DNA of 32,022 bases from Acidimicrobiales bacterium (GTDB taxonomy: Bacteria > Actinomycetota > Acidimicrobiia > Acidimicrobiales > VFJN01), in assembly GCA_036781345.1 (NCBI GenBank), contig DAIQBC010000001.1, positions 1,121 through 33,142 on the forward strand, written 5' to 3'. The position numbers were made by a program, and so were the translations under genes. Shown one piece after another: positions 1 to 32,021 of this stretch; position 1 is the stretch's first letter, and each line of letters opens with the position of its first letter. The notes beneath the pieces were generated by a model, which did not search any database, was not told the DNA's origin, and saw nothing but the letters and a program-made list of their open reading frames with translations.

Positions 1-762
1 CCGCGCCGAGCGGAAGTCCACGCGGGCGACACTCCTGGTTCCCACGCCACCGTCGATGGGGTGGTTCTGGTCGGCGGTCCCGTGGATGTGCAACACGGAG
101 ACCGGCTGGTCCGGCTCGCAGATGTCGATCCCCAGACTGCCCGCCTGCACCCCAACGGCCACGACCAGGTCAGAGAGCTCACAGGCCAACCGGTAGGCCA
201 GGATCGCACCGTTGGAGTGTCCGGCGGCGTAGACCCGGTCGGCATCGATGGGGTGGTCCCGCTCGACCGCCTCGATGAGCATGCGGATGAACGTGACATC
301 GTCGACGTTCTGGGTGACCGCTGGTCCGCAGCAGTAGCCACCGTTCCACGTGCGCGACTGGTCGGCATTCGGTCCGATGCCGATGCCGTCTGGGTAGACG
401 ACGATGAAGTCGTTCGCCTCGGCGAGCCCGTCGAAGCCGGAGTTGGCTTCGAACTGCGCGCCCCATCCCGTCCCTCCGTGCAGGGCGATCAGCAACGGCA
501 CAGCGGAGCCCGGGCGAACCGAGGCAGGGACGTAGGTGCGGTAGGTGCGAGTCCGACCGTCGGGCGTGGTCAGCGAGCTGTCGCTCCGCTCGCCGACGGC
601 CGGCTCGGCCGGGCGCACGGTGCGAACCGGCGCGTCGGAGCGGTCGGTGGTGGTCGGCTCAGACTCGCTCGTCGACTGCACCGGCGAGCATCCAGAGACC
701 GGCAGGGCCATCGCGACGACCAGCGTTGACACCGTGATCGCACGCCACGATGTCCTGCTCAT
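1..762 (-). CDS. Lipoprotein esterase, PHB-depolymerase/LpqC-like alpha/beta hydrolase (C-terminus runs off the window)
   Basis: Absent from the ORF track because it is open at the window edge. My translation from ATG at 762-760 gives MSRTSWRAITVSTLVVAMALPVSGCSPVQ (signal peptide plus lipobox VSGC). It continues with LIALHGGTGWGAQFEANSGFDGLAEANDFIVVYPDG and the nucleophile elbow AAGHSNGA (GxSxG). Frame stays open to position 1. ATGA overlap with the P450 stop (759-762). Confidence 0.7.
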   Translation of the reverse strand, partial: MSRTSWRAITVSTLVVAMALPVSGCSPVQSTSESEPTTTDRSDAPVRTVRPAEPAVGERSDSSLTTPDGRTRTYRTYVPASVRPGSAVPLLIALHGGTGWGAQFEANSGFDGLAEANDFIVVYPDGIGIGPNADQSRTWNGGYCCGPAVTQNVDDVTFIRMLIEAVERDHPIDADRVYAAGHSNGAILAYRLACELSDLVVAVGVQAGSLGIDICEPDQPVSVLHIHGTADQNHPIDGGVGTRSVARVDFRSAR

Positions 763-2066: not shown

Positions 2067-2081
2067 GTGCGGGGAGTCCGA

Positions 2082-3053
2082 TCAGGACCCGCCCTGGAAG
2101 ACCGCCGCCTTGATGCCGTCGCCGGCCAGCGCCACCAGGAACGGGATCGGATCGGCGAGAGCGCCGAGCCCGGCGGCTCCGACGGGCACCCGTCCGGCCA
2201 GCGCCCAACGCAGGGCTAGGGCCGCCGTAGCCCCAGCCGCCACCGCCGGCCGGTCGAGCGCACCGAGCACCAACGTGTCGCTCTGCCCGTTGCGCTGGCC
2301 GCGCACCTCCACGCGGACCGCCCCCACCAGCCCTTCGGGATGAGGTTTGCGCAGCATTGGCAGGTGGGCCGAGAAGCGGTCACGCCGGTTGGCGGCCAAG
2401 CGGGCGGTGACCCGCTCGATCCCGGGGAACACCGGCACGAGCAGGAGCGCGTCGGGCAGCTCGGCGCGGTAGCAGTCCTGCCCGCCAACAGGGTCAGGGA
2501 ACCAGCACAGCTCGCGACCGGACCCCGCCGGCCGGCGCTGCCAGCCACCGTCGCGCCAGTCGAGCGCCTGGCCGGTGAGGGCGGCGTGGTGCTGGCGGGC
2601 GCAGGCCGGACCGCCGGTGCCGCTCCGCGCCACGTGCACCTCCGTGACGTCATCGAACGACCGTGCCGCGTGGCGGGCCAGGAGGCAGCTGTAGCCGGGG
2701 GAGAAGGCCGCACCGACCACCACCGGCAGCTCGCGGATGCGGGCTTCCGCGTCGAGGTCGAGCAGCGCGGTCACGTCGTCGATCGAGTCGCTGGTGGACA
2801 CCACCGGCCGACCAGCGGCGAGGTGGTGCCCGGCCAGGTCGGCGTGGGTCCCGGGCGGTCCGGCCAGCAGCACGGCGTCGGCGACGTCACGGTCCGCTCC
2901 GGCGATGGCCTTGTCCCCCGATGCCTCCACCACGGCGGCCTGACGGACCGGATCGACGTCGACCACCACCACCTGGTCCACGTCATCGCTCTCCACGAGC
3001 TGGCGCACGGCCCGGGCCCCGACAGCGCCCACACCCACGACGAGGACGCGCAC
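2082..3053 (-). CDS. Saccharopine dehydrogenase-like NAD(P)-binding protein
   Basis: C-terminal 323 codons of the 682-aa track ORF. GTG at 3053-3051 gives the N-terminus (M)RVLVVGVGAVGARAVRQL, a Rossmann GxGxxG. The upstream part of the track ORF overlaps the opposite-strand secreted-protein gene and looks like a high-GC shadow. Confidence 0.7.
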   Translation of the reverse strand: MRVLVVGVGAVGARAVRQLVESDDVDQVVVVDVDPVRQAAVVEASGDKAIAGADRDVADAVLLAGPPGTHADLAGHHLAAGRPVVSTSDSIDDVTALLDLDAEARIRELPVVVGAAFSPGYSCLLARHAARSFDDVTEVHVARSGTGGPACARQHHAALTGQALDWRDGGWQRRPAGSGRELCWFPDPVGGQDCYRAELPDALLLVPVFPGIERVTARLAANRRDRFSAHLPMLRKPHPEGLVGAVRVEVRGQRNGQSDTLVLGALDRPAVAAGATAALALRWALAGRVPVGAAGLGALADPIPFLVALAGDGIKAAVFQGGS

Positions 3054-3190
3054 TACTCGAGATCGGGGCCGGAGAGCTCGCGCCAGCCCCCTTGCTGTGG
3101 CGGGGTGCCGCCAGAGCCACGGAGCCGGAGCACCGCCGCGATGATCCCCGCCAGCCCGAGGGCGATGAGAGCACGGCGCAACAGGGCCAT
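3053..3190 (-). CDS. Small (45 aa) single-pass membrane peptide, hypothetical
   Basis: Below the track size cutoff. My translation is MALLRRALIALGLAGIIAAVLRLRGSGGTPPQQGGWRELSGPDLE. GGAG lies about 10 nt upstream of the ATG. Its TAG stop shares one nucleotide with the GTG start of the downstream dehydrogenase-like gene (TAGTG). Confidence 0.35.
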   Translation of the reverse strand: MALLRRALIALGLAGIIAAVLRLRGSGGTPPQQGGWRELSGPDLE

Positions 3191-3416: not shown

Positions 3417-4439
3417 ATGGGCACACAACGTTCTCGTCGACTCCGAAGTGCGGCCTGCGGAGCGCTCATCCTCCTCCCCCTCCTCCCCGGCCCGGCAACC
3501 GCGCCGGCCGGGGCGGACCCTGGCGCGTGCGTCGCCCGCACGTTCATCGCGGGGGTCGACCTCGGTTGCCTGACCGACAACCTCTTCGTGTTCACCGACG
3601 GGAGCAAGGACGCCAATTGGCAGAGCTCGTCGAAGGGCTATGCCGGCAACGTTGCCATCGACGGGTTCTCTGCGCGCGAGCGGACCTCGGGCACCTTTGC
3701 CTATGCCGGCACGATCACCACGAACGACAGCGACCTCGGGGCGTGGGAGAAGATCGTCGGCGCCAACTCCGGGCAGGCGACCTCCGCAGCCGATGACACG
3801 GTGGGCATCGACGACCTGTCGACGACCCTCGGAGCTGCGATCGCAGAGATCGGCGCTCGCACGGCCACCCCCGGATACGAAGCTCGATCCGCCCAGTCCC
3901 TCGATGGGCTGGACACTCGGAACGGGTTCACGGACCAGGTGGTGATCAACGTGACGAGCGGCCTCAAGGTGTCGACCCGGATCACCGTCTTCGGCGATGC
4001 CGCCGACATCTACCTGCTCCGCTGGGACACCGACGGTGACGCCCGCAACGGCCTCCAGGGACAGGTCAAGTTCCAGAGCGGAGGGGCCATCGTCCCCGCT
4101 GGGGAGCTCACTCCCGCCAACTTCCTGCACATCGCGGGGGACATGACCGCCTCCGGTGGCGGCTCGACGCCCCCGTCGCCCTACCCGCAGGGCCCCCGGC
4201 TCGGTAGCGGGACGGGCCCGCTGATCACCGGCGGCTCGGACTTCAACGGCGGCGGGTTCTTCACGGGCTACTGGCTCACAACTGGGTCGCCCCAGACGGG
4301 GAAGACCTCATCGATGAGCAACGCCGTGTTCGTCGGTGGGTGGTACTCGCTCACCAACGAGTTCAGCATGACCAGCGGCACGAGCGGCGTGCACGTCGCC
4401 CCGCCGGCCGGAGGCGGCGGGGGCGGCGGCGGCACCTGA
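3417..4439 (+). CDS. Secreted hypothetical protein with C-terminal poly-Gly tail
   Basis: Internal ATG at 3417 is preceded by AAAGGA. N-terminus MGTQRSRRLRSAACGALILLPLLPGPATAPAGA looks like a signal peptide (RR-containing). The mature part is Gly/Thr/Ser-rich and beta-rich, and it ends APPAGGGGGGGGT. I recognised no family motif securely. Confidence 0.6.
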   Translation: MGTQRSRRLRSAACGALILLPLLPGPATAPAGADPGACVARTFIAGVDLGCLTDNLFVFTDGSKDANWQSSSKGYAGNVAIDGFSARERTSGTFAYAGTITTNDSDLGAWEKIVGANSGQATSAADDTVGIDDLSTTLGAAIAEIGARTATPGYEARSAQSLDGLDTRNGFTDQVVINVTSGLKVSTRITVFGDAADIYLLRWDTDGDARNGLQGQVKFQSGGAIVPAGELTPANFLHIAGDMTASGGGSTPPSPYPQGPRLGSGTGPLITGGSDFNGGGFFTGYWLTTGSPQTGKTSSMSNAVFVGGWYSLTNEFSMTSGTSGVHVAPPAGGGGGGGGT

Positions 4440-4495
4440 TGTCTCTGTAGCGACACGCCCGGATCGTCGACAGGTTCTCGAAGAGCCGGCAGGAG

Positions 4496-4652
4496 TGGTG
4501 GGGTTGGGAGGAATCGAATCCTCCGGCCTCCCCCTCATCGGGGGATCGCCGGGTGCGCCACTGACCGCCAAGCCCGCTGGGGTCTTGTGCTCACGACTGA
4601 CCGCCAAGAACATCCATTGTCCACTCTCCCGCGGCCTGGCCGCGGCCTGAGC
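4496..4652 (-). repeat. Degenerate copy of the island distal junction: tRNA-Ile-like 3-prime fragment, TGACCGCC arm repeats and 20-bp palindromic box
   Basis: By-eye alignment to 22778-22952 gives roughly 70% identity. It includes a T-arm-like ggaggattcgattcctcc, an acceptor/CCA-like caaccccacca (minus strand) and two ctgaccgccaag 12-mers (4561-4572, 4597-4608). The stretch ctcccgcggcctggccgcggcctg is identical in both regions. Confidence 0.6.
4630..4649. repeat. 20-bp box cgcggcctggccgcggcctg, copy 1 of 3
   Basis: Exact 20-mer also found at 22930-22949 and 31866-31885. It contains the near-perfect palindrome cgcggcc-t-ggccgcg. Confidence 0.85.
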
Positions 4653-4941
4653 GACCCGTGCGCCACCGCATCGCGGACGTCACAACCCCTACGAGGCCCT
4701 CGCTGAGGACGCCTCGGGCGGGACTGCACTGCTGCCCGCAACGGACATGACGATCGCCGGGATCGTCAGGCGTAGAGCTGGAATCCCATCTCGGCCTTCG
4801 TGAGGCCCAGCTCCTCGCGCCGCCCATCGAGGGCTGGCACCTTGTTCGTCGAGCTGATCGATCCGGCGGCATCTCCTCCGCCGTCGGCGAGCTGCCATTC
4901 GGTCCAGAAGACCGCGACGTCACGCGCGCCGCGGCTGGCCC

Positions 4942-5484
4942 TCACTGAGCGGCGAGCCACTGGTCCCGCACCTCCGGCACCAGGGGGTCGAAGTCGGCCC
5001 GGATGGAACGGGAGAGATCACGCAGGTCGGCCCACAGGTCGTAGATCGACGGGCGACCCCAGAACCAGTACCCGCAGTAGATCTTGTGGACCACGAGCCC
5101 CGGGGCGAGCACGAGGGTGTAGGGGACGTTCGCCGGATGGTGGGTGTCGGTGTACTCCCGGATGTCGAGGTCGGCCTGGACCACGAGCTGCTCGTCGGCG
5201 AGGAAGGTCCAGCTGGCCCCGGTCGAGATCTTGAGCTTGTACGTCTCGTGCTGGTCGTTGGGCAGCAGCGAGACCAGGGACGTGAATCCCACGGCGCACC
5301 ACTCGTGGAGCTTGAGCAGCTCCCGGTGCATCTGGCGCTCGCGGGGACAGTGCTCGCCACGGCTGAGGTGCAGCACCATCAGGCCGTCGTCGCCCTGCAA
5401 GTCGGACAGCCGGTGGCGCACGCCGGCCTCATCGGGGAGCTCGTAGTCGGGGAAGGTGGCGCCGGGGATGATGTCGGCTCGCAT
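4942..5484 (-). CDS. Redoxin/AhpC-TSA-like thioredoxin-fold protein
   Basis: 180-aa ORF with GAGAGGA upstream of the ATG. Thioredoxin-fold-like N-terminus (LSDLQGDDGLMVLHLSRGEHCPRERQ) with a single candidate active-site Cys. Last gene of the minus-strand lactonase operon. Confidence 0.65.
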   Translation of the reverse strand: MRADIIPGATFPDYELPDEAGVRHRLSDLQGDDGLMVLHLSRGEHCPRERQMHRELLKLHEWCAVGFTSLVSLLPNDQHETYKLKISTGASWTFLADEQLVVQADLDIREYTDTHHPANVPYTLVLAPGLVVHKIYCGYWFWGRPSIYDLWADLRDLSRSIRADFDPLVPEVRDQWLAAQ

Positions 5485-5502
5485 CGAAAGGGTCCTCTCG
5501 TA

Positions 5503-7068
5503 TCAGGGAAGGGCACCGCCTGCGGGCAGCCGCAGCCGGTACACGCTGGTCATGGCACAGATGTAGAGGGTGTTGCCGTCGTCGCCCCACGCCAGGTTGT
5601 GGGGGGCCTCGGGGAGCACGAGGCGGCCGAGGATGGATCCCTCCGGGGTGATCACCCAGATGCCGCCGGGCCCACACGTGTAGAGGTGGCCGGCCCGATC
5701 CACCTTGATGCCGTCGATTGCGTCGTCACCGTCCTCGCCGGTGAGGTCGCACAGCACGATGGCGTTGGCGGTGGACCCGTCGTCGGCGACGTCGTAGCGC
5801 ATGACCACCTTGTGGCTGGGATCCCAGTCGCCGACGTAGAGGTAGCGCTCGTCGGGCGACAGGGCGATGCCGTTGGGTCCGGCCAGCTCGTCTGTGACGA
5901 GCTCGATCCGGCCCTCGCGCGCCCGGAAGACCCCGGAGAACGGGAGCTCTCGCTTCGGGTCGTCCGCTCCGGCCGGCAGCCCGAACGGCGGGTCGGTGAA
6001 GTAGAGCGTCCCGTCGGACCGGAAGACGAGGTCGTTTGGGCTGTTGAGCCGCTTGCCGTCGTAGTGATCAGCCAGCACCGTCGTGTCGCCGTGTGGGTTC
6101 ACTCGGATCACGCGGCGGTTGCCGTGCTGGCAGATGGCCAGCCTGCCGGCAGGGTCGAGGGTCAGGCCGTTGGAGCCCGGTTGGTGGTAGCGGCCGATGT
6201 CGGCGCCGGCGTACCCGCTCTTGGCCCGGAAGACGGTGACGACCCCGTTCGGGGTCCACCGGTAGATCGTGTTCACGTCAGGTGAGCTGAAGAGCAGGGC
6301 GCCGTCCTGCCACACCGGCCCCTCCGTGAACTCGAACCCGGTGGCGATCCGCTCCAGCTCGGTGCCGGCGGGGACGACGGCATCGAGACGGGCGTCCCGG
6401 CGCTCGACCGCCAGGGGTGCTCGCTCACCGACTCCGGCCCGCTCGGCGAGGTACACGTCGAGGGTGGCCGTCCGGACCCAGATGTAGTTGTGCGGATCTG
6501 ACGACAGCGGCCCGTTGATGCCAAACACCGCTATCGAGAAGGAGTCTCCGGGCCGGGCGTCTCGCGTGAGCACCACCCGGTTCGGGGCGTTGAAGCCGGC
6601 CACCACCGGACCCCCGGAGTCGCCGAGCACGAACGGCAGCTCGCCGTCCACCCACACCTCGGCGTAGTCGTCGACGACGATCTCGAACACGACGGTGGCG
6701 CCAGTCGGGTCGAGGTCGCCGATGCGTTCGGGGATCGTGACCGTGGTCCGATACCAGTTGAACGACACCCGGCCGGAGCCGAGGCGGCGCTCGAGCTCGG
6801 TCGGCGCGAGCTCCGCCCAGTCGGAGTCGTCGAAGCCGGGCCCACCCGCTCGGGGAAGGATGCCGAAGGTGCGAGTGGGCACCGTGCCCGGGCCGAGGTC
6901 GTCGCCGACGCCCACGAAGTCCACGTCGACGACCGTGGCGTCCGCGTAGCGCCACTGCGCCCCAACCAGGGCCGCGCCCTCGGCGGTTCGGAGGTCGACG
7001 ACGGCATCGGGACGGCCGGGCAGGAGCTCGGGCGGGCCGGGGACCCGGTGGGCGGTGGCGGAGCTCAC
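5503..7068 (-). CDS. SMP-30/gluconolactonase/LRE-like beta-propeller fused to an N-terminal beta-sandwich (galactose-binding-like) domain
   Basis: C-terminal half has propeller signatures FTEGPVWQDGALLFSS, NSPNDLVFRSDGTLYFTDP and GPNGIALSPDERYLYVGD. I chose GTG at 7068-7066 as start, 1 nt after the upstream stop (7070-7072). The track start at 7104 would overlap the upstream gene. Confidence 0.75.
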   Translation of the reverse strand: MSSATAHRVPGPPELLPGRPDAVVDLRTAEGAALVGAQWRYADATVVDVDFVGVGDDLGPGTVPTRTFGILPRAGGPGFDDSDWAELAPTELERRLGSGRVSFNWYRTTVTIPERIGDLDPTGATVVFEIVVDDYAEVWVDGELPFVLGDSGGPVVAGFNAPNRVVLTRDARPGDSFSIAVFGINGPLSSDPHNYIWVRTATLDVYLAERAGVGERAPLAVERRDARLDAVVPAGTELERIATGFEFTEGPVWQDGALLFSSPDVNTIYRWTPNGVVTVFRAKSGYAGADIGRYHQPGSNGLTLDPAGRLAICQHGNRRVIRVNPHGDTTVLADHYDGKRLNSPNDLVFRSDGTLYFTDPPFGLPAGADDPKRELPFSGVFRAREGRIELVTDELAGPNGIALSPDERYLYVGDWDPSHKVVMRYDVADDGSTANAIVLCDLTGEDGDDAIDGIKVDRAGHLYTCGPGGIWVITPEGSILGRLVLPEAPHNLAWGDDGNTLYICAMTSVYRLRLPAGGALP

Positions 7069-18961: not shown

Positions 18962-19942
18962 ATGATCCTGACCAGCGATGTCATCCCGATCGAGGTCCAC
19001 CTCGATCCCGGCGAGTGGACTCGGCTCCTCCGGGCCGAGGCCGCGGCGGGCTTGACCGCCACACCCAAGGAGCTGCCGCCGACGTGGCTCTACGACGATC
19101 GTGGCTGCGAGCTCTTCGACGCCATCACCCGGCTCCCCGAGTACTACCCCACCCGAACCGAGCGGGCCATCCTCGCGGAGCGGGCTACCGCCATCGCCAC
19201 CATCACCGGCGCGGACACGCTGATCGAGCTGGGCGCTGGCACATCGGAGAAGACCCGGCTGCTCCTCGACGCCATGACGGCCACAGGTTGCCTCCGCCGC
19301 TTCGTGCTCTTCGACGTCGCCGAGCCCACTCTGCGAGCCACTGCCCAGACCGTGGCCGAGGAGTACCCCGAGATCGAGGTCTCCGGTGTCGTCGGTGACT
19401 TCCGGCGCCACCTTGACCGCATCCCCAACGACGGCCGGCGGCTCATCGCCTTCCTTGGGGGCACCATCGGCAACCTCCAGCCGCCCGACCGAGCATCGCT
19501 CCTCGCTCAGCTGGCTCGCACGATGGCCCCCGGCGACGCGCTGCTCCTCGGCACCGACCTCGTGAAGGAGCCCGACCGGCTCGTCGCCGCCTACGACGAC
19601 ACCGCTGGGGTGACCGCGGCGTTCAACAAGAACGTGCTCGCCGTGCTGAACCGCGAGCTGGGCGCCGACTTCGACCTCGAGCGCTTCGATCACGTCGCTC
19701 GCTTCGACCCTGACGAGCAGCGGATCGAGATGCGGCTCCGAGCCCGGGGCGCCCAAGCCGTGCGGGTCGAAGCCCTGGGCCTCACCTTGGCGTTCGACGA
19801 CGGCGAGGACATCCGAACGGAGATCAGCACCAAGTTCCGCCCTGAGGCCGTTCGGGCCGAGATCGCCGCTGCCGGCCTCGATCTGGTCGCGTGGTGGACC
19901 GACGGCAGCGGTGACTACGGCGTGTCGCTGTCGATCCGATGA
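18962..19942 (+). CDS. egtD: L-histidine N-alpha-methyltransferase (ergothioneine biosynthesis)
   Basis: Close by-eye match to mycobacterial EgtD landmarks: LPPTWLYDDRGCELFDAITRLPEYYPTRTE, ELGAGTSEKTRLLLDAM, FLGGTIGNL and GVTAAFNKNVLAVLNREL. Confidence 0.9.
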   Translation: MILTSDVIPIEVHLDPGEWTRLLRAEAAAGLTATPKELPPTWLYDDRGCELFDAITRLPEYYPTRTERAILAERATAIATITGADTLIELGAGTSEKTRLLLDAMTATGCLRRFVLFDVAEPTLRATAQTVAEEYPEIEVSGVVGDFRRHLDRIPNDGRRLIAFLGGTIGNLQPPDRASLLAQLARTMAPGDALLLGTDLVKEPDRLVAAYDDTAGVTAAFNKNVLAVLNRELGADFDLERFDHVARFDPDEQRIEMRLRARGAQAVRVEALGLTLAFDDGEDIRTEISTKFRPEAVRAEIAAAGLDLVAWWTDGSGDYGVSLSIR

Positions 19943-21111
19943 GCGCCCTCGACTACTGCTCGGTCCGGGCGACCACCGAGCGCCTGGCCGCCCGGCTGGG
20001 GGCAGAGGACCAGACCGTGCAGTCGATGCCGGACGCCTCACCCACGAAGTGGCACCGGGCCCACACCTCGTGGTTCTTCGAGACCTTCGTGCTGCGGCCG
20101 TTCGCCGAGGGCTACGAGGAGGTCGAGCCCGCCTACCGCTTCCTCTTCAACTCCTACTACGAGGCTGTCGGGCCTCGTCACGCGAGGCCGCAGCGCGGGC
20201 TCATCACCCGACCCGGCATCGCCGAGGTGGCTTCCTATCGCCGCCATGTCGACCGGGCCATGCTCACCCTGCTGGACGGCGAGGTGCGCGATCCGGTCGC
20301 GCCGCTGGTCGAGCTCGGGCTCCACCACGAGCAGCAGCACCAGGAGCTGCTGGTGATGGACATCCAGCATGCGCTCTCGTGCAACCCGCTCCTGCCTCGG
20401 TACGGCGAGCTCCCCTGGGCCTCGAGCGAACCGACCGGTGATGGCTGGATCCGGCACGACGGTGGTGTCGTGGAGGTCGGCCACGGGGGCTGCTCGTTCG
20501 CCTTCGACAACGAGGGTCCGAGGCACGAGCAGCTGCTCCGGCCCTTCGAGATCGCCGCCGGCCTGGTGACCAACGGCGACTGGCTGGCCTTCATGGACGA
20601 CGGCGGGTACGAGCGGGCTGAGCTCTGGATGTCCGACGGCTGGCACATGGTGCAGGCGAGCGGGTGGCACAGCCCCGAGTACTGGCACCTCGCAGAGGAC
20701 TCGGCTCTCGTGTTCGGCCTCGAGGGCCTCCGACCGCTCGACCCGGCGGCACCTGTCGCCCACATCAGCTGGTTCGAGGCCGATGCCTACGCACGGTGGG
20801 CCGGCGCGAGGCTCCCGCTGGAGGCCGAGTGGGAGGCCACCGCCCCCGAGCCCGAGGATCGCCGTGCGCCAGGGTGGTACGGCTCGGTCTGGCAGTGGAC
20901 CGCCAGCCCCTACACCGCGTACCCGGGGTTCCGACCCTCAGCCGGGGCCGTCGGTGAGTACAACGGGAAGTTCATGGTCAACCAGCACGTGCTGCGAGGC
21001 TCCTGCCGCGCCACCCCGCCCGGCCACGCCCGCCGTACCTACCGGAACTTCTTCCCAGCCTCGGCTCGCTGGGCCTTCGCCGGGCTGCGCCTCGCCTACG
21101 ACGGCCGGTGA
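19939..21111 (+). CDS. egtB: Hercynine oxygenase / sulfoxide synthase
   Basis: ATGA overlap with egtD. DinB-like N-terminus SPTKWHRAHTSWFFETF and HHEQQHQELL, followed by an FGE-sulfatase-like C-terminus (WQWTASPYTAYPGF, RGSCRATP). Confidence 0.85.
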   Translation: MSALDYCSVRATTERLAARLGAEDQTVQSMPDASPTKWHRAHTSWFFETFVLRPFAEGYEEVEPAYRFLFNSYYEAVGPRHARPQRGLITRPGIAEVASYRRHVDRAMLTLLDGEVRDPVAPLVELGLHHEQQHQELLVMDIQHALSCNPLLPRYGELPWASSEPTGDGWIRHDGGVVEVGHGGCSFAFDNEGPRHEQLLRPFEIAAGLVTNGDWLAFMDDGGYERAELWMSDGWHMVQASGWHSPEYWHLAEDSALVFGLEGLRPLDPAAPVAHISWFEADAYARWAGARLPLEAEWEATAPEPEDRRAPGWYGSVWQWTASPYTAYPGFRPSAGAVGEYNGKFMVNQHVLRGSCRATPPGHARRTYRNFFPASARWAFAGLRLAYDGR

Positions 21112-22777: not shown

Positions 22778-22837
22778 CAGGTCAGGGGTGGTGGGGCTAG
22801 GAAGAATCGAACTTCCGACCTCATCCTTATCAGGGAT
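22778..22837 (-). repeat. att repeat, distal copy (displaced tRNA-Ile 3-prime segment)
   Basis: caggtcaggggtggtggggctaggaagaatcgaacttccgacctcatccttatcagggat is identical over 60/60 nt to 31934-31993. Identity breaks on both sides. Confidence 0.9.
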
Positions 22838-22976: not shown

Positions 22977-23648
22977 TCAATATCCGACGAGCAGGATTCC
23001 CTTGAACGGGAGTGTGAGTCGTCCGCTCCAGTGCAGCGCGCGCAGGAACTCGAGTAGCGGCTCGTAGCCGGCGCTGGTTTGTCCGCTCGAGCGATAGGAG
23101 ATCGGGATCATCATCGCCAGGTAGTCCGCGTCGGCGATGAGGCTGGTTCTGAGCAGGTCGCGGAACCCTGCGTTCGACATGACGCCACGACCGGCCTCGA
23201 CCTCGACGACGATCTTCATCTCCGGCTGGTATGCATCGATGTCGTACCTGATCGAGGGAACGCCGTTCTCACCGAAGAGGACCGGTCGTCGGATCAGGCC
23301 AGCCGCGGCCTTTCCCGCTTCGACCTCGTAGTTGAGTGCCTCGAGGCCCGTGCGGAGCTCCTTGAGAACCGTGTCACTCTTCGGTCCGTTCTTGTCGGCC
23401 GATGAGATGGCTCCCTCGGCCGCCGCGACCACCGCTACGAACTGCAGAGCCCAGCCCGGGGGCTCGTCATTGGCTGGGAAGTACTGCCATCTCGGGAACG
23501 CCACTGCCGTAGCTTGTCGCCGTTCGGCCGGTGAAGCTAGCGGCAGAGGCCCGCCGGCGATCCGTTCGCTTGGCTTCCTGTTGAGGCGCTGGTTCGGTCC
23601 CGACAGGTAGTGGGCCTGCCCCAGCCGAACTCTGTCGTCCCGGCGCAC
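22977..23648 (-). CDS. PD-(D/E)XK nuclease candidate, BamHI/BglII-like; no partner methyltransferase
   Basis: Core RYDIDAYQPEMKIVVEVEAGRGVMSNAGFRDLLRTSL fits an acidic D ... E-x-E arrangement followed by an SN...R..L helix, as I recall it for BamHI/BglII-type enzymes. The first ~48 codons have poor codon bias. An alternative GTG start at 23504 would give 175 aa. Confidence 0.45.
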   Translation of the reverse strand: MRRDDRVRLGQAHYLSGPNQRLNRKPSERIAGGPLPLASPAERRQATAVAFPRWQYFPANDEPPGWALQFVAVVAAAEGAISSADKNGPKSDTVLKELRTGLEALNYEVEAGKAAAGLIRRPVLFGENGVPSIRYDIDAYQPEMKIVVEVEAGRGVMSNAGFRDLLRTSLIADADYLAMMIPISYRSSGQTSAGYEPLLEFLRALHWSGRLTLPFKGILLVGY

Positions 23649-23975: not shown

Positions 23976-24707
23976 GTGTCGGTAGCGCGCGAGCCGGCAC
24001 GCGAGGTCCTCCTGCGCCGAGTGTTGAATGCAGCGAAGGAAGACTGGGCGCACACCACAGCGACACAGCGACTGATCCTGATCGTCGTCGCAGTCGGCAT
24101 CGCTTATGAGTGGGGCATCGGCAATGAGATTGTTACCCCCTGGCTGTCCTCGCTCCTACTTGATCGTCTTGGAGACGGAATCGGTGGAGCTCTCGCTGCC
24201 GCTGGGCTCGTGGCGGTATTCACGGCCCTGCAGCAGGTGGCTGTTGGTTGGCTCACGCTTTACGCGATGGCCGTGACTCCCTCAGTCGTCGACACCGCGG
24301 CAGATGCTGTTCGTGCTCGCTTTGGCTTCGTCGTCCCGTCGTGGTGGACGCTTCCAAGGTTTCAGGCCGTTGCCGTGAGCTTCAGTCTCGGTGGAACGTT
24401 CGTCGCGGTCGAGGAATCTCTCGCAGCCGCGCCACGGCGGAGACACACGGTCGTCGTCTCCTCCGTGGTCTGCGCAACAACCGTCTTCGTGGTTGTCGGT
24501 GTCATCGGCGTGCTCGTTCTCGCGTGCGATGGAACGGTTCTCGAAGGCGCTGCGCGGACCCTGATGCGAATCCTGAGCAACCCGATGCCTTGGTGCGTGG
24601 TGGCCATTGGGCCATCGGTCGTCAAGTGGGTACGCGAGAGACACGCGACAACCTCAGCCGGTTCGATCAGTCTTGCCCAGCCACCAGCCGAGGACGAGCC
24701 CCGTTGA
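23976..24707 (+). CDS. Polytopic membrane protein (4-5 TM), hypothetical
   Basis: GTG start with GGGAG 10 nt upstream. Hydrophobic segments include LILIVVAVGIAY, GGALAAAGLVAVFTAL..GWLTLYAMAV, FQAVAVSFSLGGTFVAV, VVVSSVVCATTVFVVVGVIGVLVLA and PWCVVAIGPSVV. Confidence 0.6.
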   Translation: MSVAREPAREVLLRRVLNAAKEDWAHTTATQRLILIVVAVGIAYEWGIGNEIVTPWLSSLLLDRLGDGIGGALAAAGLVAVFTALQQVAVGWLTLYAMAVTPSVVDTAADAVRARFGFVVPSWWTLPRFQAVAVSFSLGGTFVAVEESLAAAPRRRHTVVVSSVVCATTVFVVVGVIGVLVLACDGTVLEGAARTLMRILSNPMPWCVVAIGPSVVKWVRERHATTSAGSISLAQPPAEDEPR

Positions 24708-25531
24708 CAGTTGAGGCGAATCCCTACTCCGCGGACCCCTATGGCACCGATGTACTCGAGGCGTGCGTACATGCGTGCGCTGCCCTTGAGCCTTTCCTAT
24801 ACGAGGTCGCGTACGCGGACATCGGCTCGTCTGAGGTCTACTGCATCAACGAGCCCGGCTCGGAGGCTGCCAACGTCTGCCGAGCGATCGAAGGATTTGT
24901 ATTCGAGCGAGACTGGGGCTTGCCTCCTGCGCACACCGTTGTCGACTTCGCACCATTTGAAGGCAACTCAATCTTCTTCCTGTTGACGACTCGCGTCGAC
25001 GGCCAGAGCCGACCTGTCGGCGTCTTGCGCGTCGCCGATCTCTCGGTAGGGCCTTCAGAGAGCGAGTCGGCGTACCGTGAGCTGATCGGCGACGGTCCCC
25101 TGCCTGCGGAGCTCCGATGGCTACCTGAGGACCGCGGAGTGTGGGACGTGGTTGGCGTCGCCGTGCTTCCTGAGTACCGGAATGGCCTGGAGTCGGCGTG
25201 GCTCTACCACGCCCTTTATCAAGCGAGTCTCGATCGCAGAATCACGCGATGGATCACCAACGTGACGCCGCGCGAGCTTCGAAACCTCCGCGAGTGGATG
25301 GGCATACCGTTCACGGACGTTGGTGAGAGCGGCATATATGTCGGTCCAACGGATGGAGTCGCAACGGAGTTCATCTTCTGTGAATGTCTCGTTGGCGTGA
25401 TCGCTGCTGCAGTGAGCCAGCGGATCGCCGAACTTGAACGCGATGAGAGCGAGATGTCCCTTCTAATTTCGCAAGCGGCGAGCGTTGCACTAACGGGGAG
25501 ATTCCCCCCGCTCCAGCAACTAATGGGGTAG
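24704..25531 (+). CDS. GNAT-fold N-acyltransferase candidate (LuxI/FeeM/OlsB-like)
   Basis: TTG at 24704 overlaps the membrane-protein TGA (TTGA), with GAGGA 9 nt upstream. There is no in-frame ATG until very late. Motifs by eye are CRAIEGFVFERDWGL...VVDFAPFEG...LLTTRVDGQSRPVGVLRVAD and WDVVGVAVLPEYRNG. Confidence 0.45.
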   Translation: MTVEANPYSADPYGTDVLEACVHACAALEPFLYEVAYADIGSSEVYCINEPGSEAANVCRAIEGFVFERDWGLPPAHTVVDFAPFEGNSIFFLLTTRVDGQSRPVGVLRVADLSVGPSESESAYRELIGDGPLPAELRWLPEDRGVWDVVGVAVLPEYRNGLESAWLYHALYQASLDRRITRWITNVTPRELRNLREWMGIPFTDVGESGIYVGPTDGVATEFIFCECLVGVIAAAVSQRIAELERDESEMSLLISQAASVALTGRFPPLQQLMG

Positions 25532-25655: not shown

Positions 25656-25674
25656 CTGCGCCGGGGCGGCAGAG
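25656..25674 (+). repeat. Island intergenic motif copy 1 (ctGCGCCGGGGCGGCAGag)
   Basis: The 15-nt core gcgccggggcggcag is at 25658-25672. It is preceded by the hairpin ccagcg-cac-cgctgg (25641-25655). It lies in the convergent gap between the acyltransferase-like gene and the relaxase. Confidence 0.8.
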
Positions 25675-25848: not shown

Positions 25849-28455
25849 TCATCTTCCCCAATCGAGCTCCAGACCGAGGTCGTCTCGCCCCAGCCCGAGC
25901 TCGGGGGTCGGCAACCCAGCGTCGCGGTGCAGGCGGTCGGCGACGCTGAGGGCTGAATAGCGATCAGCTTCGTGAGCAAGGACCCCACCGAGGACGTCCA
26001 CTGGGTCAAGCATGCCTTCGGGGTCGGGGAGCCACGCATGGTTCGCCTCGCGACCCCGGGTGAGGGCGACGTAGGCATGGTTTCGGTTGGTGCCCGGTTC
26101 GATGACGGCGATGCCGATGTCGACGGTGTCGCCTTGGTTGCCGTAGCCGGTGACGGCCCATCCGAGCTCCACGTGGCGGCTGGTGTAGTCGGGAGGCAGC
26201 ACCGCCGTGCCCCGCTCCGGTGCGGTAACAGTGAGCTGGCCTCGGTCATCGATGCGCTCGACGGTCCAGATCTGTCGGTTGCGGACCTGCTGTCCCAGGC
26301 TGGTCTCGAGGGTGCGGTCGTTGCGGCGGGTGGCGATCCGGTCGCCGGCCAGGACGTGGGTGCCGTCGGCGAGCTCGACGCCGCGCTCGCCGAGCCGGTG
26401 TTGTCGGGCTTGGATGGCTTCGTTGATCTCACGGGCGGTGGCGGCGCTGCTGGTGGTGATGGCAACCGACCGGCCCGCGTCGACGTGGCTCCGGTAGGTG
26501 TCGGCGATCCGGTTGGAAAGCAGCGCTGGGTGAGCCGTGTGGAGGCGGTGGTGCTGGTCGTAGAGCTCGACGACGGAGCGCTCCCCGCGCCGCAGTCCGA
26601 GGCTGGCCTCAGCTTCCCATGGCTCGATGAAGCGACGGGGGTCGTCGAGCTCGTGGTGGGGGACGGTCTCGCACCAGTGGGCGAACAGCCCGCCGCGGCC
26701 GACCGAGGGCAGCTGCGCGGGGTCGCCGACGAACACGATCCGCCAGTGCCGGTAGCGGGCGTGGTCGATGAGCTCGGCCAGGTCTTGGGTGGCGGCCATG
26801 CCGGCTTCGTCGACGATGACGGTGGTCCCCATCGGCCACGGCGAGGGCGTCCGGGAGTCGCGGTGGCGGGTGAGGAACCCGGCCAGGGTGTCGGTCGGGC
26901 AGCCGGCCTCGAGGTGCAGCACGTCGGCGGCCTTCCCGGATGGCGCGAGGCCGACAACGGGCCGGTCCCGTTCGCGCAGCTGCTCGACGGCTTGGGCGGT
27001 TGTGCGGGTCTTGCCGGTCCCGGCGGGCCCGACGACCAGGACCAGCCGCGCTGGGCCGGCGATGGCCGCCGCTGCGTCAGCCTGCCGGTCGCCTGAACCG
27101 GGTTCGACGGGGTAGGCGTGCCCGAGCGCCCAGTCCTGCAGCCTGCGCTCCTGTTCGAGGATGTCGATGGTGGTGAGGCGGTGGTCGGTGACGTGCTCGG
27201 CGAAGGGCCGCCCATCCCTTCGCCGGTGGGGTCCTTCCCGCTCCGGGGCGAGCGGGATGCAGCGTTCGACCCCTCGACTGGTGATCTGGTCGACGAGGTC
27301 GACGAGCCCTAGCGCACCGGGTGCGGCGTCGGGCGGGACGAGGGTGGCAACGTGTCGAGCGAGATCGGCGGGCAGCCAGGTCGAAGACTCCTCGGCGACG
27401 CGCCGGACCGCCTCGGTGGCGATCGCATGCTCGTCGGCGGGCGGTCGGGGTCCCGATGCGGGTCCCGATCGTGGTCCCGACGGCCCGAGCTCGGGCAGCT
27501 CGACGCCCAGCGCCCTCGCCTGGTCGCCCCAGGAGCGGTGGAGATCGACGGCGTCGATCCCGTGAGCCTTCGGGGGCCGGGAGGCCAGCACCGCGGCCCG
27601 CGTCAGATGAGCGATCGTCCGGGCATCGGGGTCCGTGCCGTCATGCTCCAGGCTCCAGCGTGCGATCAGCTCGCGCTGCTTCGCCTTGACCTGTGTGGTC
27701 CGCTGCGAGAACGCCTGTCGGACCACCTCCGGGACCCCAGTCAGCTCGGCCTGGCCACCCGCAACGGGGCCCCACTCGACGCCGAGGCGGCCGGTGAGCT
27801 CGCTGCGCAGGGCGGCGTCGTAGACCCAGCCGATCGTGCGCTGCTGGTACTTCAGGAACCGGGCATCGAGCGACAGCCACTTCCCCGTCGGGTCCTGGAC
27901 CTTCGCCGAGATCACGGCATGGGTGTGCAGCTGCGGATCGACAGTCCGGGAGGTGTGCTGCCGGAACAGGGCCGCGGTCACCCCGAGGGTGTCGACCTGA
28001 TGGACGCCCTGTGGTCCGCGGCGGGTCACTCCCCCATGGGTCTGGAACCAGGCCATCGCTGCCTCGACGGCGTGGTCGTGGGCGGCGAGGACCTCCGCCC
28101 GCACCCACGGATCCGGCGTAAGCGCCCACAGCACCGACACCGACTTCGGCGCCGAGAACGTCGCATCGAACCCTCGCACCGACGACTCCCCGAACGACCT
28201 TCCGAGCGCCTCTCCCGTGACCGGATGGGATGCCTCCAGCACCGAACGAAGCGCCTCCGGAGTGACCTCACCCGACACGCCGAGCGCCACCCGACCATCA
28301 CCCCACCAGCGCCCGAGCTGCTCGTCCGGATCGAGGTAGTAGTCCACCGGTCCACGTCCGGGCTTCTCCGGGCCTCGTTCCGCCAGGCCCGCGTAGTACG
28401 CGATCAACCCGCCCACCCCGCCGCCGCTCACCTTGAGCGTCGTCACTCGCATCAT
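25849..28455 (-). CDS. MobF-family conjugative relaxase with C-terminal RecD/TraA-like helicase
   Basis: Start at ATGATG 28455 (MMRVTTLKV). TrwC-type relaxase motifs GFDATFSAPKSVS and the His triad HTSRTVDPQLHTHAVI. Helicase Walker A VVGPAGTGKT and Walker B TVIVDEAGM. Confidence 0.9.
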   Translation of the reverse strand: MMRVTTLKVSGGGVGGLIAYYAGLAERGPEKPGRGPVDYYLDPDEQLGRWWGDGRVALGVSGEVTPEALRSVLEASHPVTGEALGRSFGESSVRGFDATFSAPKSVSVLWALTPDPWVRAEVLAAHDHAVEAAMAWFQTHGGVTRRGPQGVHQVDTLGVTAALFRQHTSRTVDPQLHTHAVISAKVQDPTGKWLSLDARFLKYQQRTIGWVYDAALRSELTGRLGVEWGPVAGGQAELTGVPEVVRQAFSQRTTQVKAKQRELIARWSLEHDGTDPDARTIAHLTRAAVLASRPPKAHGIDAVDLHRSWGDQARALGVELPELGPSGPRSGPASGPRPPADEHAIATEAVRRVAEESSTWLPADLARHVATLVPPDAAPGALGLVDLVDQITSRGVERCIPLAPEREGPHRRRDGRPFAEHVTDHRLTTIDILEQERRLQDWALGHAYPVEPGSGDRQADAAAAIAGPARLVLVVGPAGTGKTRTTAQAVEQLRERDRPVVGLAPSGKAADVLHLEAGCPTDTLAGFLTRHRDSRTPSPWPMGTTVIVDEAGMAATQDLAELIDHARYRHWRIVFVGDPAQLPSVGRGGLFAHWCETVPHHELDDPRRFIEPWEAEASLGLRRGERSVVELYDQHHRLHTAHPALLSNRIADTYRSHVDAGRSVAITTSSAATAREINEAIQARQHRLGERGVELADGTHVLAGDRIATRRNDRTLETSLGQQVRNRQIWTVERIDDRGQLTVTAPERGTAVLPPDYTSRHVELGWAVTGYGNQGDTVDIGIAVIEPGTNRNHAYVALTRGREANHAWLPDPEGMLDPVDVLGGVLAHEADRYSALSVADRLHRDAGLPTPELGLGRDDLGLELDWGR

Positions 28456-28684
28456 CGGATCACGCCCCGAAGCCGCGCTCTGGGTCGTGCCCCGGCCAGT
28501 GCACCCGTCTGCCTCATGTAGGGATAGGCCTGCGGAGGGCCGAACTGTCGCGACGATCGCGCCGACGGAGCGCTCATGGCGAGGCCAAGGTGGAGCCGGA
28601 CGAGCTAGTGGACCACGGCCCTGACATGGCCAGCAGCGGGGCGACGAACGGCCCAGGGGTCCGCTCGGTGGCAACCCGGCGCTG

Positions 28685-28699
28685 GCGCCGGGGCGGCAG
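28685..28699 (+). repeat. Island intergenic motif copy 2
   Basis: Core gcgccggggcggcag. It overlaps the 8-bp-arm palindrome cccggcgc-tg-gcgccggg (28675-28692) in the divergent relaxase / PH-protein promoter region. Confidence 0.8.
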
Positions 28700-29331: not shown

Positions 29332-29366
29332 CCGCACGGAACTGCCGGTAAGGACAACGCGGATCC

Positions 29367-29414
29367 CGATCGGGAACTTGATCGGGACTTCGATCGGGAC
29401 CCTGATCAGACCGT
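29367..29414 (+). repeat. Iteron array 1: 12-bp-phased (c/t)GATCGGGA(a/c) x3 plus one degenerate unit
   Basis: cgatcgggaact (29367), tgatcgggactt (29379), cgatcgggaccc (29391), tgatcagaccgt (29403). A GGATCC lies immediately upstream at 29361-29366. Confidence 0.8.
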
Positions 29415-29436
29415 GGCCGGGATCAGCTCGCGCTCT

Positions 29437-29455
29437 GCGCCGGGGCGGCAGAGGT
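29437..29455 (+). repeat. Island intergenic motif copy 3 (left arm of 19-bp inverted repeat)
   Basis: gcgccggggcggcagaggt. With flanks it reads ctctgc-gccggggcg-gcagag, a possible 6-bp stem. Confidence 0.85.
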
Positions 29456-29507
29456 CCATCCGACCTGACTGTGTCCACGACTGCCGCCGCGGGCACACTT
29501 GCCTGCA

Positions 29508-29934: not shown

Positions 29935-29992
29935 TGAGGTCCTCGTGATCCCAAGTGCTTCGTCGCAGGCCCCGGTTCGGCCGGTATCCCCT

Positions 29993-30040
29993 GAGTTGGG
30001 ACCTCGATTGGGACCGCCATCGGGACCTAGATCGGGACCG
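29993..30040 (+). repeat. Iteron array 2: 12-bp-phased nnAT(c/t)GGGACCn x4
   Basis: gagttgggacct (29993), cgattgggaccg (30005), ccatcgggacct (30017), agatcgggaccg (30029), followed by degenerate units. It lies directly upstream of xis. Confidence 0.8.
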
Positions 30041-30104
30041 TCATCGCGCACGATCCGGCCGGGACGCCAGCCAGCGACCCTCCACTCCTGCCTGGAGGTA
30101 CCCC

Positions 30105-30323
30105 GTGCCGATCGATCGTTCGACCCCGCCCCTGCTCCCCAATCGCCTCGTCGGCATCGGCGAGGTCGCCGACCTGCTCGGCGTCGAGGTTCGTCACGTC
30201 CGCCGGCTCGTTGCCGAACGCCGCATCCCGTTCATCAAGTGGGGGCACCTGGTTCGGTTCGACCCTCTCGAGCTCGCCGCTTGGATCGACGAGCACCGGC
30301 TGGCGTCAGGACCGTCGCGATGA
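30105..30323 (+). CDS. xis: Excisionase-family DNA-binding protein (MerR-like winged HTH)
   Basis: GTG at 30105 with GGAGG 6 nt upstream. LVGIGEVADLLGVEVRHVRRLVAERRIPFIKWGHLVRFDPLELAAWI is a typical HTH_17/excisionase signature. The longer track ORF (from 29955) merely translates the iterons. Confidence 0.8.
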   Translation: MPIDRSTPPLLPNRLVGIGEVADLLGVEVRHVRRLVAERRIPFIKWGHLVRFDPLELAAWIDEHRLASGPSR

Positions 30324-30418
30324 GGGGCGGACCGTCACACCGGACTCCTACGATGGTCTCAGCCCTCGGGCCTCGCCGTTCACTCGGCCTCCAATCCGGT
30401 TGATCGGGAGCGAGGCCA

Positions 30419-31549
30419 GTGGCGCACGTCGAGAAGCGAGGGCCCTCCCGTTGGAGGGCTCGATACCGGGGACCTGACGGGCGAGAGCGGTCGATGACGT
30501 TCGATCGGCGCGCAGACGCCGACCGGTGGCTCGCGGCGAACGAGATCGCTAAGGCCCGCAGCGAGTGGATCGACCCGAGCTTGGGTCGCTGCACGTTCGC
30601 CACCTGGGCAGAGCAGTGGAAGACCACGCTCGTCGATCTGCGGCCGGCCACGCGAGACCGTGATCTTCGGATCCTCCGAGTGCACCTGGTCCCCCACTTC
30701 GGGACCATGCCCCTCGCCAAGATCACGCGTGGGACCGTCGTCGGGTTCGTCAGCGGGATGCTCGCCGCTGGCGACCATGCACCCGCGACGGTCCGGAAAG
30801 TCGGCCAGGTCCTCAACAAGGTCCTGAAGGCGGCCGTCGAGGCGGGCCTGATCACCAGGTCACCGAGCGACGGGGTCCGGCTGCCCGCCGAAGGGCGACG
30901 CGAGATGGCCTTCCTCACCCCAGACCAGGTCAATCTCCTCGCCACGGCCGTTGGCCCGGAATGGGAGGCTCTTGTCCTCACCGCGGCCTACACCGGACTC
31001 CGGTGGGGCGAGCTGGCCGGCCTCCGGGTCGGACGAGTCGATCTCGCCCGACGGACGGTGACGGTGGTCGAGCAGCTGAACGAGCTCAGCGGGCAGCTGG
31101 AGTTCGGGCCCCCGAAGACAGCGGCCGGCCGAAGGGCCGTCTCGCTCCCCGTCCTGCTGACGGAGCTCCTCGCGGTCCAGCTCGAGCGATCCGAGGTGGT
31201 TCGCAGCGGACTGGTGTTCCCGACGCCGGTGGGCGAGCCGATGCGGCGATCCAACTTCGCTCGACGGGTCTGGGCACCGGCAGTCAGGGCGCTCGAGCTC
31301 GACGGTCTGCGCTTCCACGACCTCCGGCACACCGCGGTGGCCATAGCAATCGCCCAGGGCGCCCATCCGAAGACGCTCCAGCAGCGGATGGGCCACAGCT
31401 CCGTGACCGTCACGCTCGATCGGTACGGGCACCTCTACGACGGCCTCGACGCCCAAGTCGCGGACTCACTCGACCAGGTCCTGCGAACTTCGCGCGGCAT
31501 GAGCGCTCCGTCCCCGCCGGCGGCTGGCGAGCCGCTGCGGCTGCTCTGA
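30419..31549 (+). CDS. int: Tyrosine-type site-specific integrase
   Basis: GTG start. N-terminal SAM-like and core-binding region. Catalytic landmarks TGLRWGELAGL (Arg), HDLRHTAV (H-x-x-R) and GHSSVTVTLDRYGHL (His, Tyr). Confidence 0.9.
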   Translation: MAHVEKRGPSRWRARYRGPDGRERSMTFDRRADADRWLAANEIAKARSEWIDPSLGRCTFATWAEQWKTTLVDLRPATRDRDLRILRVHLVPHFGTMPLAKITRGTVVGFVSGMLAAGDHAPATVRKVGQVLNKVLKAAVEAGLITRSPSDGVRLPAEGRREMAFLTPDQVNLLATAVGPEWEALVLTAAYTGLRWGELAGLRVGRVDLARRTVTVVEQLNELSGQLEFGPPKTAAGRRAVSLPVLLTELLAVQLERSEVVRSGLVFPTPVGEPMRRSNFARRVWAPAVRALELDGLRFHDLRHTAVAIAIAQGAHPKTLQQRMGHSSVTVTLDRYGHLYDGLDAQVADSLDQVLRTSRGMSAPSPPAAGEPLRLL

Positions 31550-31933: not shown

Positions 31934-31993
31934 CAGGTCAGGGGTGGTGGGGCTAGGAAGAATCGAACTTCCGACCTCATCCTTATCAGGGAT
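31934..31993 (-). repeat. att repeat, tRNA-proximal copy
   Basis: Identical over 60/60 nt to 22778-22837. Covers tRNA positions from the anticodon stem to CCA (31945-31993) plus 11 nt downstream. Confidence 0.9.
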
Positions 31994-32021
31994 GCGCTCT
32001 AACCGACTGAGCTATAGCCCC
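31945..32021 (-). tRNA. tRNA-Ile (anticodon GAU), CCA encoded
   Basis: Minus strand folds by hand as GGGGCTA-TA-GCTC-AGTCGGTTA-GAGC-G-CATCC-CTGATAA-GGATG-AGGTC-GGAAG-TTCGATT-CTTCC-TAGCCCC-A-CCA. 77 nt with a canonical cloverleaf. The anticodon loop CT-GAT-AA gives GAT. Confidence 0.9.

Follow-up and report, generated by a model that had tools for sequence, protein, structure and literature searches.

A membrane protein and a GNAT-fold N-acyltransferase-like protein paired on a tRNA-Ile element of an Acidimicrobiales bacterium

The window analysed here is a stretch of 32,022 nucleotides from contig DAIQBC010000001.1 of an Acidimicrobiales bacterium (assembly GCA_036781345.1), and it contains a 9.1-kb element integrated at a tRNA-Ile gene. 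Two overlapping genes, memA and the gene of a 275-aa acyltransferase-like protein, are accessory low-GC cargo of this element and form the subject of this study. The pairing of the two protein families is real and recurs in eight independent loci. The enzyme is of a known kind, that of the GNAT N-acyltransferases; its family, its membrane partner and the conserved wiring of its gene are undescribed in the databases and the literature that were searched. On the basis of conserved gene neighbourhoods, the tentatively favoured function is the N-acylation of an amine of the polyamine pathway, while memA would deal with the product or the substrate.

A first-pass annotation, made from the letters of the window, had described two open reading frames (ORFs) overlapping in TTGA, with a GC content about 10% lower than that of the host, and had presented them as translationally coupled cargo of an island. 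The overlap was found again at the exact coordinates: the TTG start of the enzyme gene (24704-24706) and the TGA stop of memA (24705-24707) share these four letters, and a GAGGA sequence lies 9 nt upstream. This start codon matches the Joint Genome Institute (JGI) gene calls on four contigs bearing the same element, and the N-terminal length matches that of the homologue at locus L001. The GC content is 63.1% for memA and 60.5% for the acyltransferase gene, against 70.8% for the host flank. At third codon positions (GC3), the pair stands at 0.68-0.69, the relaxase and integrase genes of the element at 0.84 and the host genes at 0.88-0.91. Together with the att repeats, the integrase and the relaxase described below, these GC3 values bear out the status of island cargo. 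The possibility of a housekeeping pathway gene was considered for the pair and rejected on account of its foreign composition and its position between the att sites. Both proteins have homologues at E-values of 1e-33 to 1e-70.

Fold and kinship of the 275-aa enzyme

The 275-aa protein is predicted to be a GNAT-fold acyltransferase. The AlphaFold2 model, built with the alignment of its closest relatives (tier 1, defined below), has a predicted local distance difference test (pLDDT) of 94.4 and a predicted template-modelling score (pTM) of 0.92. Its elements follow the order beta1-alpha1-alpha2-beta2-beta3-beta4-alpha3-beta5-alpha4-beta6/7, which is the canonical GNAT order, and the GNAT core extends over approximately residues 44-229 (nt 24833-25390). 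The GNAT-like fold proposed at first sight is supported by this confident model and by Foldseek, which returned 320 matches in the PDB at E<=1e-3; the 50 matches listed are all GNAT-fold acyltransferases. Among these 50, FeeM (2g0b_D) has the best query-normalised template-modelling score (0.49, target-normalised 0.70, E 1.8e-5). The viral library of Foldseek gave generic GNATs only.

At the sequence level, the protein matches no Pfam family and yields only noise against PDB sequences. A word-indexed search of 5.8 billion proteins recovered the protein itself and one relative at 38% identity, and three relatives with a profile query; when 1.84 billion cluster representatives were searched exhaustively with a profile, 244 matched at E<=1e-3, of which 27 at E<=1e-30. 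The closest relatives, tier 1, comprise about 36 full-length proteins of 280-330 aa. Tier 2 is a larger sister family of proteins of about 270 aa, and the two tiers are homologous (hhalign E 1e-41 over 223 columns). All ten tier-1 clusters that were looked up come from metagenomes and carry either no name or that of a 'hypothetical protein'. For neither family of the pair was a Pfam or NCBIfam model found, or a source name going beyond 'hypothetical protein', and literature searches found nothing on them; the initial impression that the pairing is not a named system is thereby confirmed.

The acyltransferase motifs first noticed in the protein, R60..E63..F67..W71, VGVLR109 and VAVLPEYR159, are present and fall on columns conserved in the family. 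All 13 of the 13 nearly invariant family residues are retained by the window protein, which is probably functional for this reason. The motif A loop of GNATs (Q/R-x-x-G-x-G/A) is absent: the window protein has P-E-Y-R159-N-G161-L-E-S164 in its place and the family consensus is R-x-G-x-x-S-A. Motif A is also degenerate in the LuxI/FeeM branch.

The proposed kinship with LuxI/FeeM-type N-acyltransferases was borne out by transitive profile evidence. The sole NCBIfam match of the window protein is TIGR03694, the family of the PEP-CTERM/exosortase-associated acyltransferases, and it is weak (E 0.018, residues 167-214, 14.5 bits against a cutoff of 111.95). This model, the only curated one to match the window protein at all, is matched below its cutoff by 32 of 45 tier-2 members, with a best E-value of 3.6e-10. 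The resemblance does not extend to the gene context, since exosortase and PEP-CTERM genes are absent from the loci examined. The profiles named by the first-pass annotation gave a divided answer: the window protein matches neither Acetyltransf_5 (PF13444) nor FeeM (PF21926) nor Autoind_synth (PF00765), and its relatives match the first two weakly. Indeed, Acetyltransf_5 is found for 7/50 and FeeM for 5/50 tier-2 members (E 1e-4 to 6e-5); in tier 1, FeeM is found for one protein out of 35 at 0.028 and Acetyltransf_1 for two at 0.023. No family member reaches the Pfam thresholds for FeeM or Acetyltransf_5, and none of 35 members matches Autoind_synth at E<=0.1. Searches of PDB sequences with the profiles of either tier gave noise only.

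Kinship with LuxI-type synthases was approached with a LasI sequence checked against 1ro5. The tier-2 profile aligns with LasI at a probability of 83% (hhalign E 8.5e-6), in the register R..VF..W / LR / WD. The tier-1 profile adopts the same register weakly (E 0.0088, probability 4.6%). This register places R60..F67..W71, R109 and D148 on conserved positions of the LuxI family; S103 and R104 of LuxI are not conserved. A neighbour-joining tree was star-like and included two memA sequences, and no phylogenetic conclusion was drawn from it. Judged by these profile comparisons, the 275-aa protein is placed in an undescribed family, sister to the N-acyl synthases of FeeM, LuxI and TIGR03694 type.

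FeeM-type synthases offer a close comparison. They share with the pair enzyme a GNAT fold, a single domain of about 200-280 aa and the N-acylation of a small amine-bearing acceptor, the last being a prediction for the pair enzyme. They differ from it by an adjacent acyl carrier protein (ACP) of the FeeL kind, which does not accompany the pair enzyme, and by the absence of the extra elements of the pair family. These elements are an N-terminal helix, an insert between beta3 and beta4, in which S118-E119 and P134 are invariant, and a C-terminal pair of helices (residues 230-264).

The membrane partner and the neighbourhoods of relatives

memA encodes a hydrophobic protein without match in Pfam, NCBIfam, PADLOC, PHROGs or PDB sequences. 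The suggestion that it crosses the membrane four or five times is plausible, as the Kyte-Doolittle profile displays three strong and two weaker hydrophobic segments; this number is not established by a model with a pLDDT of 54. The alignment of homologues, which include a 48% identical protein in L001 as well as P0004 and P0005, reveals the invariant motifs Y44-E-W-G-x-G-N-E51..P55 (nt 24105-24128), Q86-Q87 and N202-P203..W206. The acidic E-W-G-x-G-N-E motif lies within the first hydrophobic helix.

The survey of co-occurrence called for by the first-pass annotation was carried out on the fetched loci, in which memA was detected by a local hidden Markov model search. In eight independent loci memA is located at most about 5 kb from the acyltransferase gene and usually adjoins it. 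In the window the two genes are co-directional and overlapping. In L033, two memA fragments lie immediately upstream of the enzyme gene, in the same gene order as in the window. In L032, a distant memA homologue (hmmsearch 4e-9, hhalign 88%) overlaps the start of a tier-2 decarboxylase-GNAT fusion. In L034, memA is downstream of the acyltransferase gene with one gene between them. The two genes are divergent in L001, in L020, in L014 with a receiver gene in between, and in L017/18 past genes for a spermidine synthase, an AdoMet decarboxylase and a receiver, which makes 4/7 of the loci other than the window. Since both families are very rare, this linkage cannot be due to chance. The variable orientation indicates that the functional link is conserved and that translational coupling is not; coupling therefore stands for the window element, and as a conserved trait it fails, L032 alone having the same overlap. 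One high-GC chromosome (L006) has memA but not the enzyme.

Beyond memA, the neighbourhood of the enzyme holds polyamine genes. AdoMet_dc and/or Spermine_synth genes adjoin it in L010, L015, L017, L023 and L027, and as fragments in L020 and L001, the latter being a 2.2-kb contig that ends in an AdoMet_dc fragment. In L026, a metagenome-assembled genome (MAG) of Actinomycetota, the enzyme is encoded by the last gene of a co-directional PvlArgDC-AdoMet_dc-Spermine_synth-GNAT series, which begins with a pyruvoyl arginine decarboxylase. In tier 2, the P0039 gene is translationally coupled to an AdoMet_dc gene, whose stop codon it overlaps, without an aminopropyltransferase, in a genome of actinobacterial look, and P0149 is a fusion of a pyridoxal phosphate-dependent ornithine/arginine decarboxylase with a GNAT. 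The recurring partner of the enzyme is thus an amine-forming decarboxylase or an aminopropyl pathway.

A second constant feature is a two-component system. In the low-GC loci (39-48% GC), the enzyme gene is followed by a gene for an orthologous histidine kinase of about 730 aa in all seven loci with downstream sequence. These kinases are 43-54% identical to each other and have a multi-pass N-terminal domain; HisKA_7TM and GAF were both recognised in L014, the former also in L023 and the latter in L020. On the opposite strand upstream, the same loci contain memA or a second gene, memB; PF02675 (AdoMet_dc) is present there once or twice, together with a homologue of spermidine synthase and one to four receivers of the stand-alone kind. 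Among the GTDB species genomes, a scan with a gapped DNA pattern located the cluster in three Saccharibacteria/Saccharimonadota MAGs and also recovered the Actinomycetota locus L026; an earlier genome scan with the pattern [AP]WLYHALY had found no relative.

Three observations on individual loci can be added. In L034 (68% GC), the enzyme and memA genes are divergent from genes for a multi-pass histidine-kinase-like protein of another type (5112-6401 (-), 429 aa, no Pfam match on record) and for a receiver-like protein (4384-5115 (-)); as this kinase is not orthologous to the others, the two-component link recurs with another kinase type. In L026, an OLD-family nuclease gene (AAA_15 and OLD TOPRIM, 818-3148 (-)) is located just upstream of the decarboxylase-GNAT operon, on the opposite strand. 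The ends of L001 carry the Nextera mosaic-end adapter TGTATAAGAGACAG (3-16 (+) and 2184-2197 (-)), and the terminal 'ORFs' starting with MYKRQ are artefacts.

Candidate functions of the pair

According to the favoured reading, the enzyme would transfer an acyl group from acyl-coenzyme A (acyl-CoA) or acyl-ACP to the amine of its acceptor. The conserved neighbourhoods suggest for this acceptor an amine of the polyamine pathway, with diamines, polyamines and aminopropyl compounds formed from decarboxylated S-adenosylmethionine (dcSAM, from SAM) as the candidates. memA may move the cationic or amphiphilic product, or the substrate, across or into the membrane, a step that is more weakly inferred. 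The overlapping start and stop codons would yield the two proteins together. In Saccharibacteria-type genomes, the enzyme appears wired to the multi-pass histidine kinase and the stand-alone receivers, and this orthologous wiring suggests that the product may be sensed there as a signal. In the window copy, the genes for kinase, receivers and polyamine synthesis have been lost; lacking both pathway and sensor, it would act on the amine and acyl pools of the host. The first-pass annotation had imagined an N-acyl amino acid or a lipid signal. The amino-acid part of this proposal was not supported: the polyamine genes and the two-component system point to an amine or aminopropyl acceptor, and in this respect the pair family also departs from FeeM-type synthases, whose context is amino-acid chemistry.

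Several points weigh against the favoured reading. The canonical CoA motif of GNATs, which would point to the acyl donor, is absent. The window itself has no polyamine, kinase or receiver gene; the polyamine argument is borrowed from relatives 29-46% identical to the window protein, and in L033 and L014 polyamine genes are not in view. Homologues of PF02675 have frequently neofunctionalised into decarboxylases of ornithine or arginine (PMC10407285); the neighbours seen here may be of that kind, which would change the amine that is formed. With regard to memA, its AlphaFold model, obtained from an input of three sequences, is too poor to use, and the protein resembles no known transporter. Finally, five Saccharibacteria-type loci have in the place of memA the unrelated memB, an unannotated Gly/Ala-rich protein of 254-338 aa with no strong hydrophobic segments. 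The idea that memB is a distant memA homologue was rejected (hhalign probability 0.1%).

The same neighbourhoods can be understood in terms of polyamine homeostasis rather than signalling. The enzyme would then be a short-chain polyamine N-acetyltransferase of the SpeG/PaiA kind that neutralises excess polyamine, memA would export the acetylated form and the kinase would sense the polyamine status. PaiA (1tiq), a spermidine acetyltransferase, has indeed the best E-value among the Foldseek matches listed, and its association with the polyamine pathway is shared by the pair family; the Foldseek E-values, however, do not separate PaiA from acyl-homoserine lactone (AHL) synthases or FeeM. The detectable relatives of the enzyme are long-chain N-acyl synthases (TIGR03694, Acetyltransf_5, FeeM, LasI) and not Acetyltransf_1 proteins, the canonical acetyl-CoA P-loop motif is absent, there is no kinship with PaiA or SpeG at the sequence level, and the pair enzyme is about 100 residues longer. 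This alternative is considered unlikely.

The proximity of AdoMet decarboxylase genes also evokes a LuxI-like synthase acylating SAM or dcSAM with release of methylthioadenosine, the decarboxylase supplying the substrate directly and the product being a lactone-like or aminopropyl-derived autoinducer. The R..VF..W, LR and W-D motifs align with residues of the SAM pocket of LasI and with its E101, on its N-terminal part and beta4. BjaI, LasI, EsaI, MesI and TofI are prominent among the 50 listed structural matches, and P0039 is coupled to AdoMet_dc alone, without an aminopropyltransferase. Like autoinducer synthase genes, the enzyme gene stands beside a dedicated sensor in Saccharibacteria-type loci. 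This sensor, however, is a histidine kinase with stand-alone receivers, and neither the window nor any of the loci has a LuxR-type gene. The family also differs from LuxI by the lack of an Autoind_synth match and of equivalents of S103 and R104, and by its AdoMet decarboxylase and aminopropyltransferase neighbours. Most clusters hold a spermidine-synthase homologue that would consume dcSAM, the tier-1 profile aligns with LasI weakly, as mentioned above, and the activity of the PF02675 protein may even be other than that of an AdoMet decarboxylase (PMC10407285). A synthase of this type is therefore judged quite improbable, and less so only than the readings that follow.

Membership of the GNAT branch to which the synthases of aminolipids and of N-acyl amino acids belong, a conserved membrane partner and a location on a mobile element would also suit an OlsB-like aminolipid synthase, whose N-acyl amine lipid would be inserted or flipped by memA to remodel the envelope, resulting on the element in entry exclusion or phage resistance. 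Against this stand the absence of an OlsA-type second acyltransferase in every locus, the absence of a PADLOC match and the constant kinase and receiver neighbours, which are more in keeping with a molecule that is sensed than with a lipid made in bulk; the proposal is ranked as a poor candidate, below the LuxI-like synthase.

The mobile element, its other genes and the significance of the pair

A repeat search of the window identified a perfect direct repeat of 60 nt, the two copies of which (attL and attR, Table 1) are the borders of the 9.1-kb element. Between them lie the memA and acyltransferase genes, a relaxase gene convergent with the latter, an integrase gene, a 223-aa ORF and two small ORFs. 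Since att repeats at a tRNA gene, a site-specific integrase and a relaxase are all present, this is an integrative mobilisable element. It resembles the actinobacterial elements of this class found at tRNA genes by its 60-nt att duplication of the tRNA 3' end, its tyrosine integrase, its MobF relaxase and its size, and differs from them by its cargo, an uncharacterised pair plus one unknown ORF. Four JGI metagenome contigs carry the identical element. The PLSDB plasmids and IMG/VR viral contigs contain no relative of either pair protein and no match to the element.

Table 1. Coordinates of features in the window and of memB in other loci
Feature	Position	Strand	Remarks
attL	22778-22837		left copy of the 60-nt repeat, left border of the integrated element
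223-aa ORF	22977-23648	(-)	divergent from memA, element cargo
memA, 243-aa hydrophobic protein	23976-24707	(+)	GTG start; undescribed family
275-aa predicted GNAT-fold N-acyltransferase-like protein	24704-25531	(+)	TTG start at 24704, stop 25529-25531; undescribed family
Coupling junction	24690-24707	(+)	Shine-Dalgarno-like GAGGA 24690-24694 and TTGA overlap 24704-24707
MobF/TrwC relaxase-helicase	25849-28674	(-)	Pfam TrwC 1.4e-74, AAA_30 8.4e-49; NCBIfam MobF 3.8e-65
Tyrosine integrase	30419-31549	(+)	Pfam Phage_integrase 1.5e-19, plus Phage_int_M and SAM_3 domains
attR	31934-31993		right repeat copy (60 nt); overlaps the 3' part of tRNA-Ile(GAT)
tRNA-Ile(GAT)	31945-32021	(-)	integration target
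memB, L010	8352-9116	(-)	
memB, L015	9051-9851	(-)	
memB, L023	2966-3982	(-)	
memB, L027	493-1722	(-)	
memB, L028	2983-3681	(+)	

The 223-aa ORF is the neighbour that the first-pass annotation took for an orphan nuclease, and its divergent orientation was correctly described. The nuclease assignment found no support in Pfam, NCBIfam, PADLOC, PHROGs or PDB sequences, none of which gave a match. The first-pass annotation had also suggested a three-gene defence module made of the pair and the divergent protein. All three genes are low-GC cargo, adjacent on one element, and they have in common a divergent intergenic region of 327 bp. The 223-aa protein is nevertheless absent from every other locus with the pair, tblastn finding it solely in the contigs L002-L004 of the same element, and it matches neither a nuclease nor a defence profile. 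PADLOC also gave no match for memA, the acyltransferase or the two small ORFs, and PHROGs gave for the island ORFs a single noise-level match (orf156, E 0.061). A three-gene defence module is thus very improbable. A toxin-antitoxin pair of the GNAT type was rejected as well: the protein is too long, a small DNA-binding antitoxin is lacking, and the context of the family is chromosomal and biosynthetic.

Other features of the element and of its flanks were observed. Two clusters, each of three iterons at 12-nt spacing with the core GATCGGGAC, are located at 29349-29419 and 29987-30057, in the region separating the relaxase side from the integrase gene; a role as arm sites for the integrase, as an origin or as oriT is conceivable. 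An exact 15-19-mer, CTGCGCCGGGGCGGCAGAG, occurs three times (25656-25674, 28685-28699 and 29435-29453), its copies bracketing the relaxase gene and a 156-aa ORF; positions 29481-29492 repeat the copy at 29440-29451 in inverted form. A 152-aa ORF (29945-30403 (+)) is unlikely to be a genuine gene in this frame, given its GC3 of 0.55, compared with about 0.84 in the adjoining element genes, and its overlap with the second iteron cluster. The left host flank, of about 70% GC, contains at 18962-21111 the ergothioneine genes EgtD (Methyltransf_33, 2.9e-110) and EgtB (FGE-sulfatase and DinB_2), whose stop and start codons overlap, followed by a GT4 glycosyltransferase gene ending just before attL. 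Elsewhere in the enzyme family, a 120-aa HExxH protein resembling ImmA/IrrE is encoded downstream of the high-GC member P0016 (L021, 515-877 (-)), which hints that this copy too is in a mobile or prophage-like context.

The presence of the cluster in Saccharibacteria leads to a more specific proposal, which is highly speculative and held even less likely than the OlsB-like synthase: the pair would provide synthesis and export in a signalling system, so far undescribed and native to Saccharibacteria, that uses an N-acyl polyamine or a dcSAM-derived signal and is hard-wired there to a dedicated multi-pass sensor kinase and receivers. A mobile element of a high-GC, probably actinobacterial host would have taken up the synthase and its partner alone, without the receptor, which could let the host produce, mimic or jam the signal of its epibiont. 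Actinobacteria are the group on which Saccharibacteria live. In Nanosynbacter lyticus TM7x, the spermidine synthase TM7x_01235 is reported to be induced when the host is first contacted (bioRxiv 10.1101/2022.03.25.485537).

Returning to the favoured reading, that of a polyamine-pathway N-acyltransferase with a membrane partner, the neighbourhood of the enzyme is strikingly constant, associating the polyamine pathway, a partner protein, an orthologous sensor kinase and receivers. Saccharibacteria genomes are heavily reduced, and the retention of the whole cluster in them points to its importance for their lifestyle. The window copy illustrates the horizontal movement of the pair into a high-GC host on a mobilisable element and, as a minimal version of two genes, constitutes a construct that is easy to express. 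Should the product prove to be an acylated polyamine and to be sensed, bacterial signalling would gain a new chemical class, and communication in the Candidate Phyla Radiation would become accessible to concrete tests.

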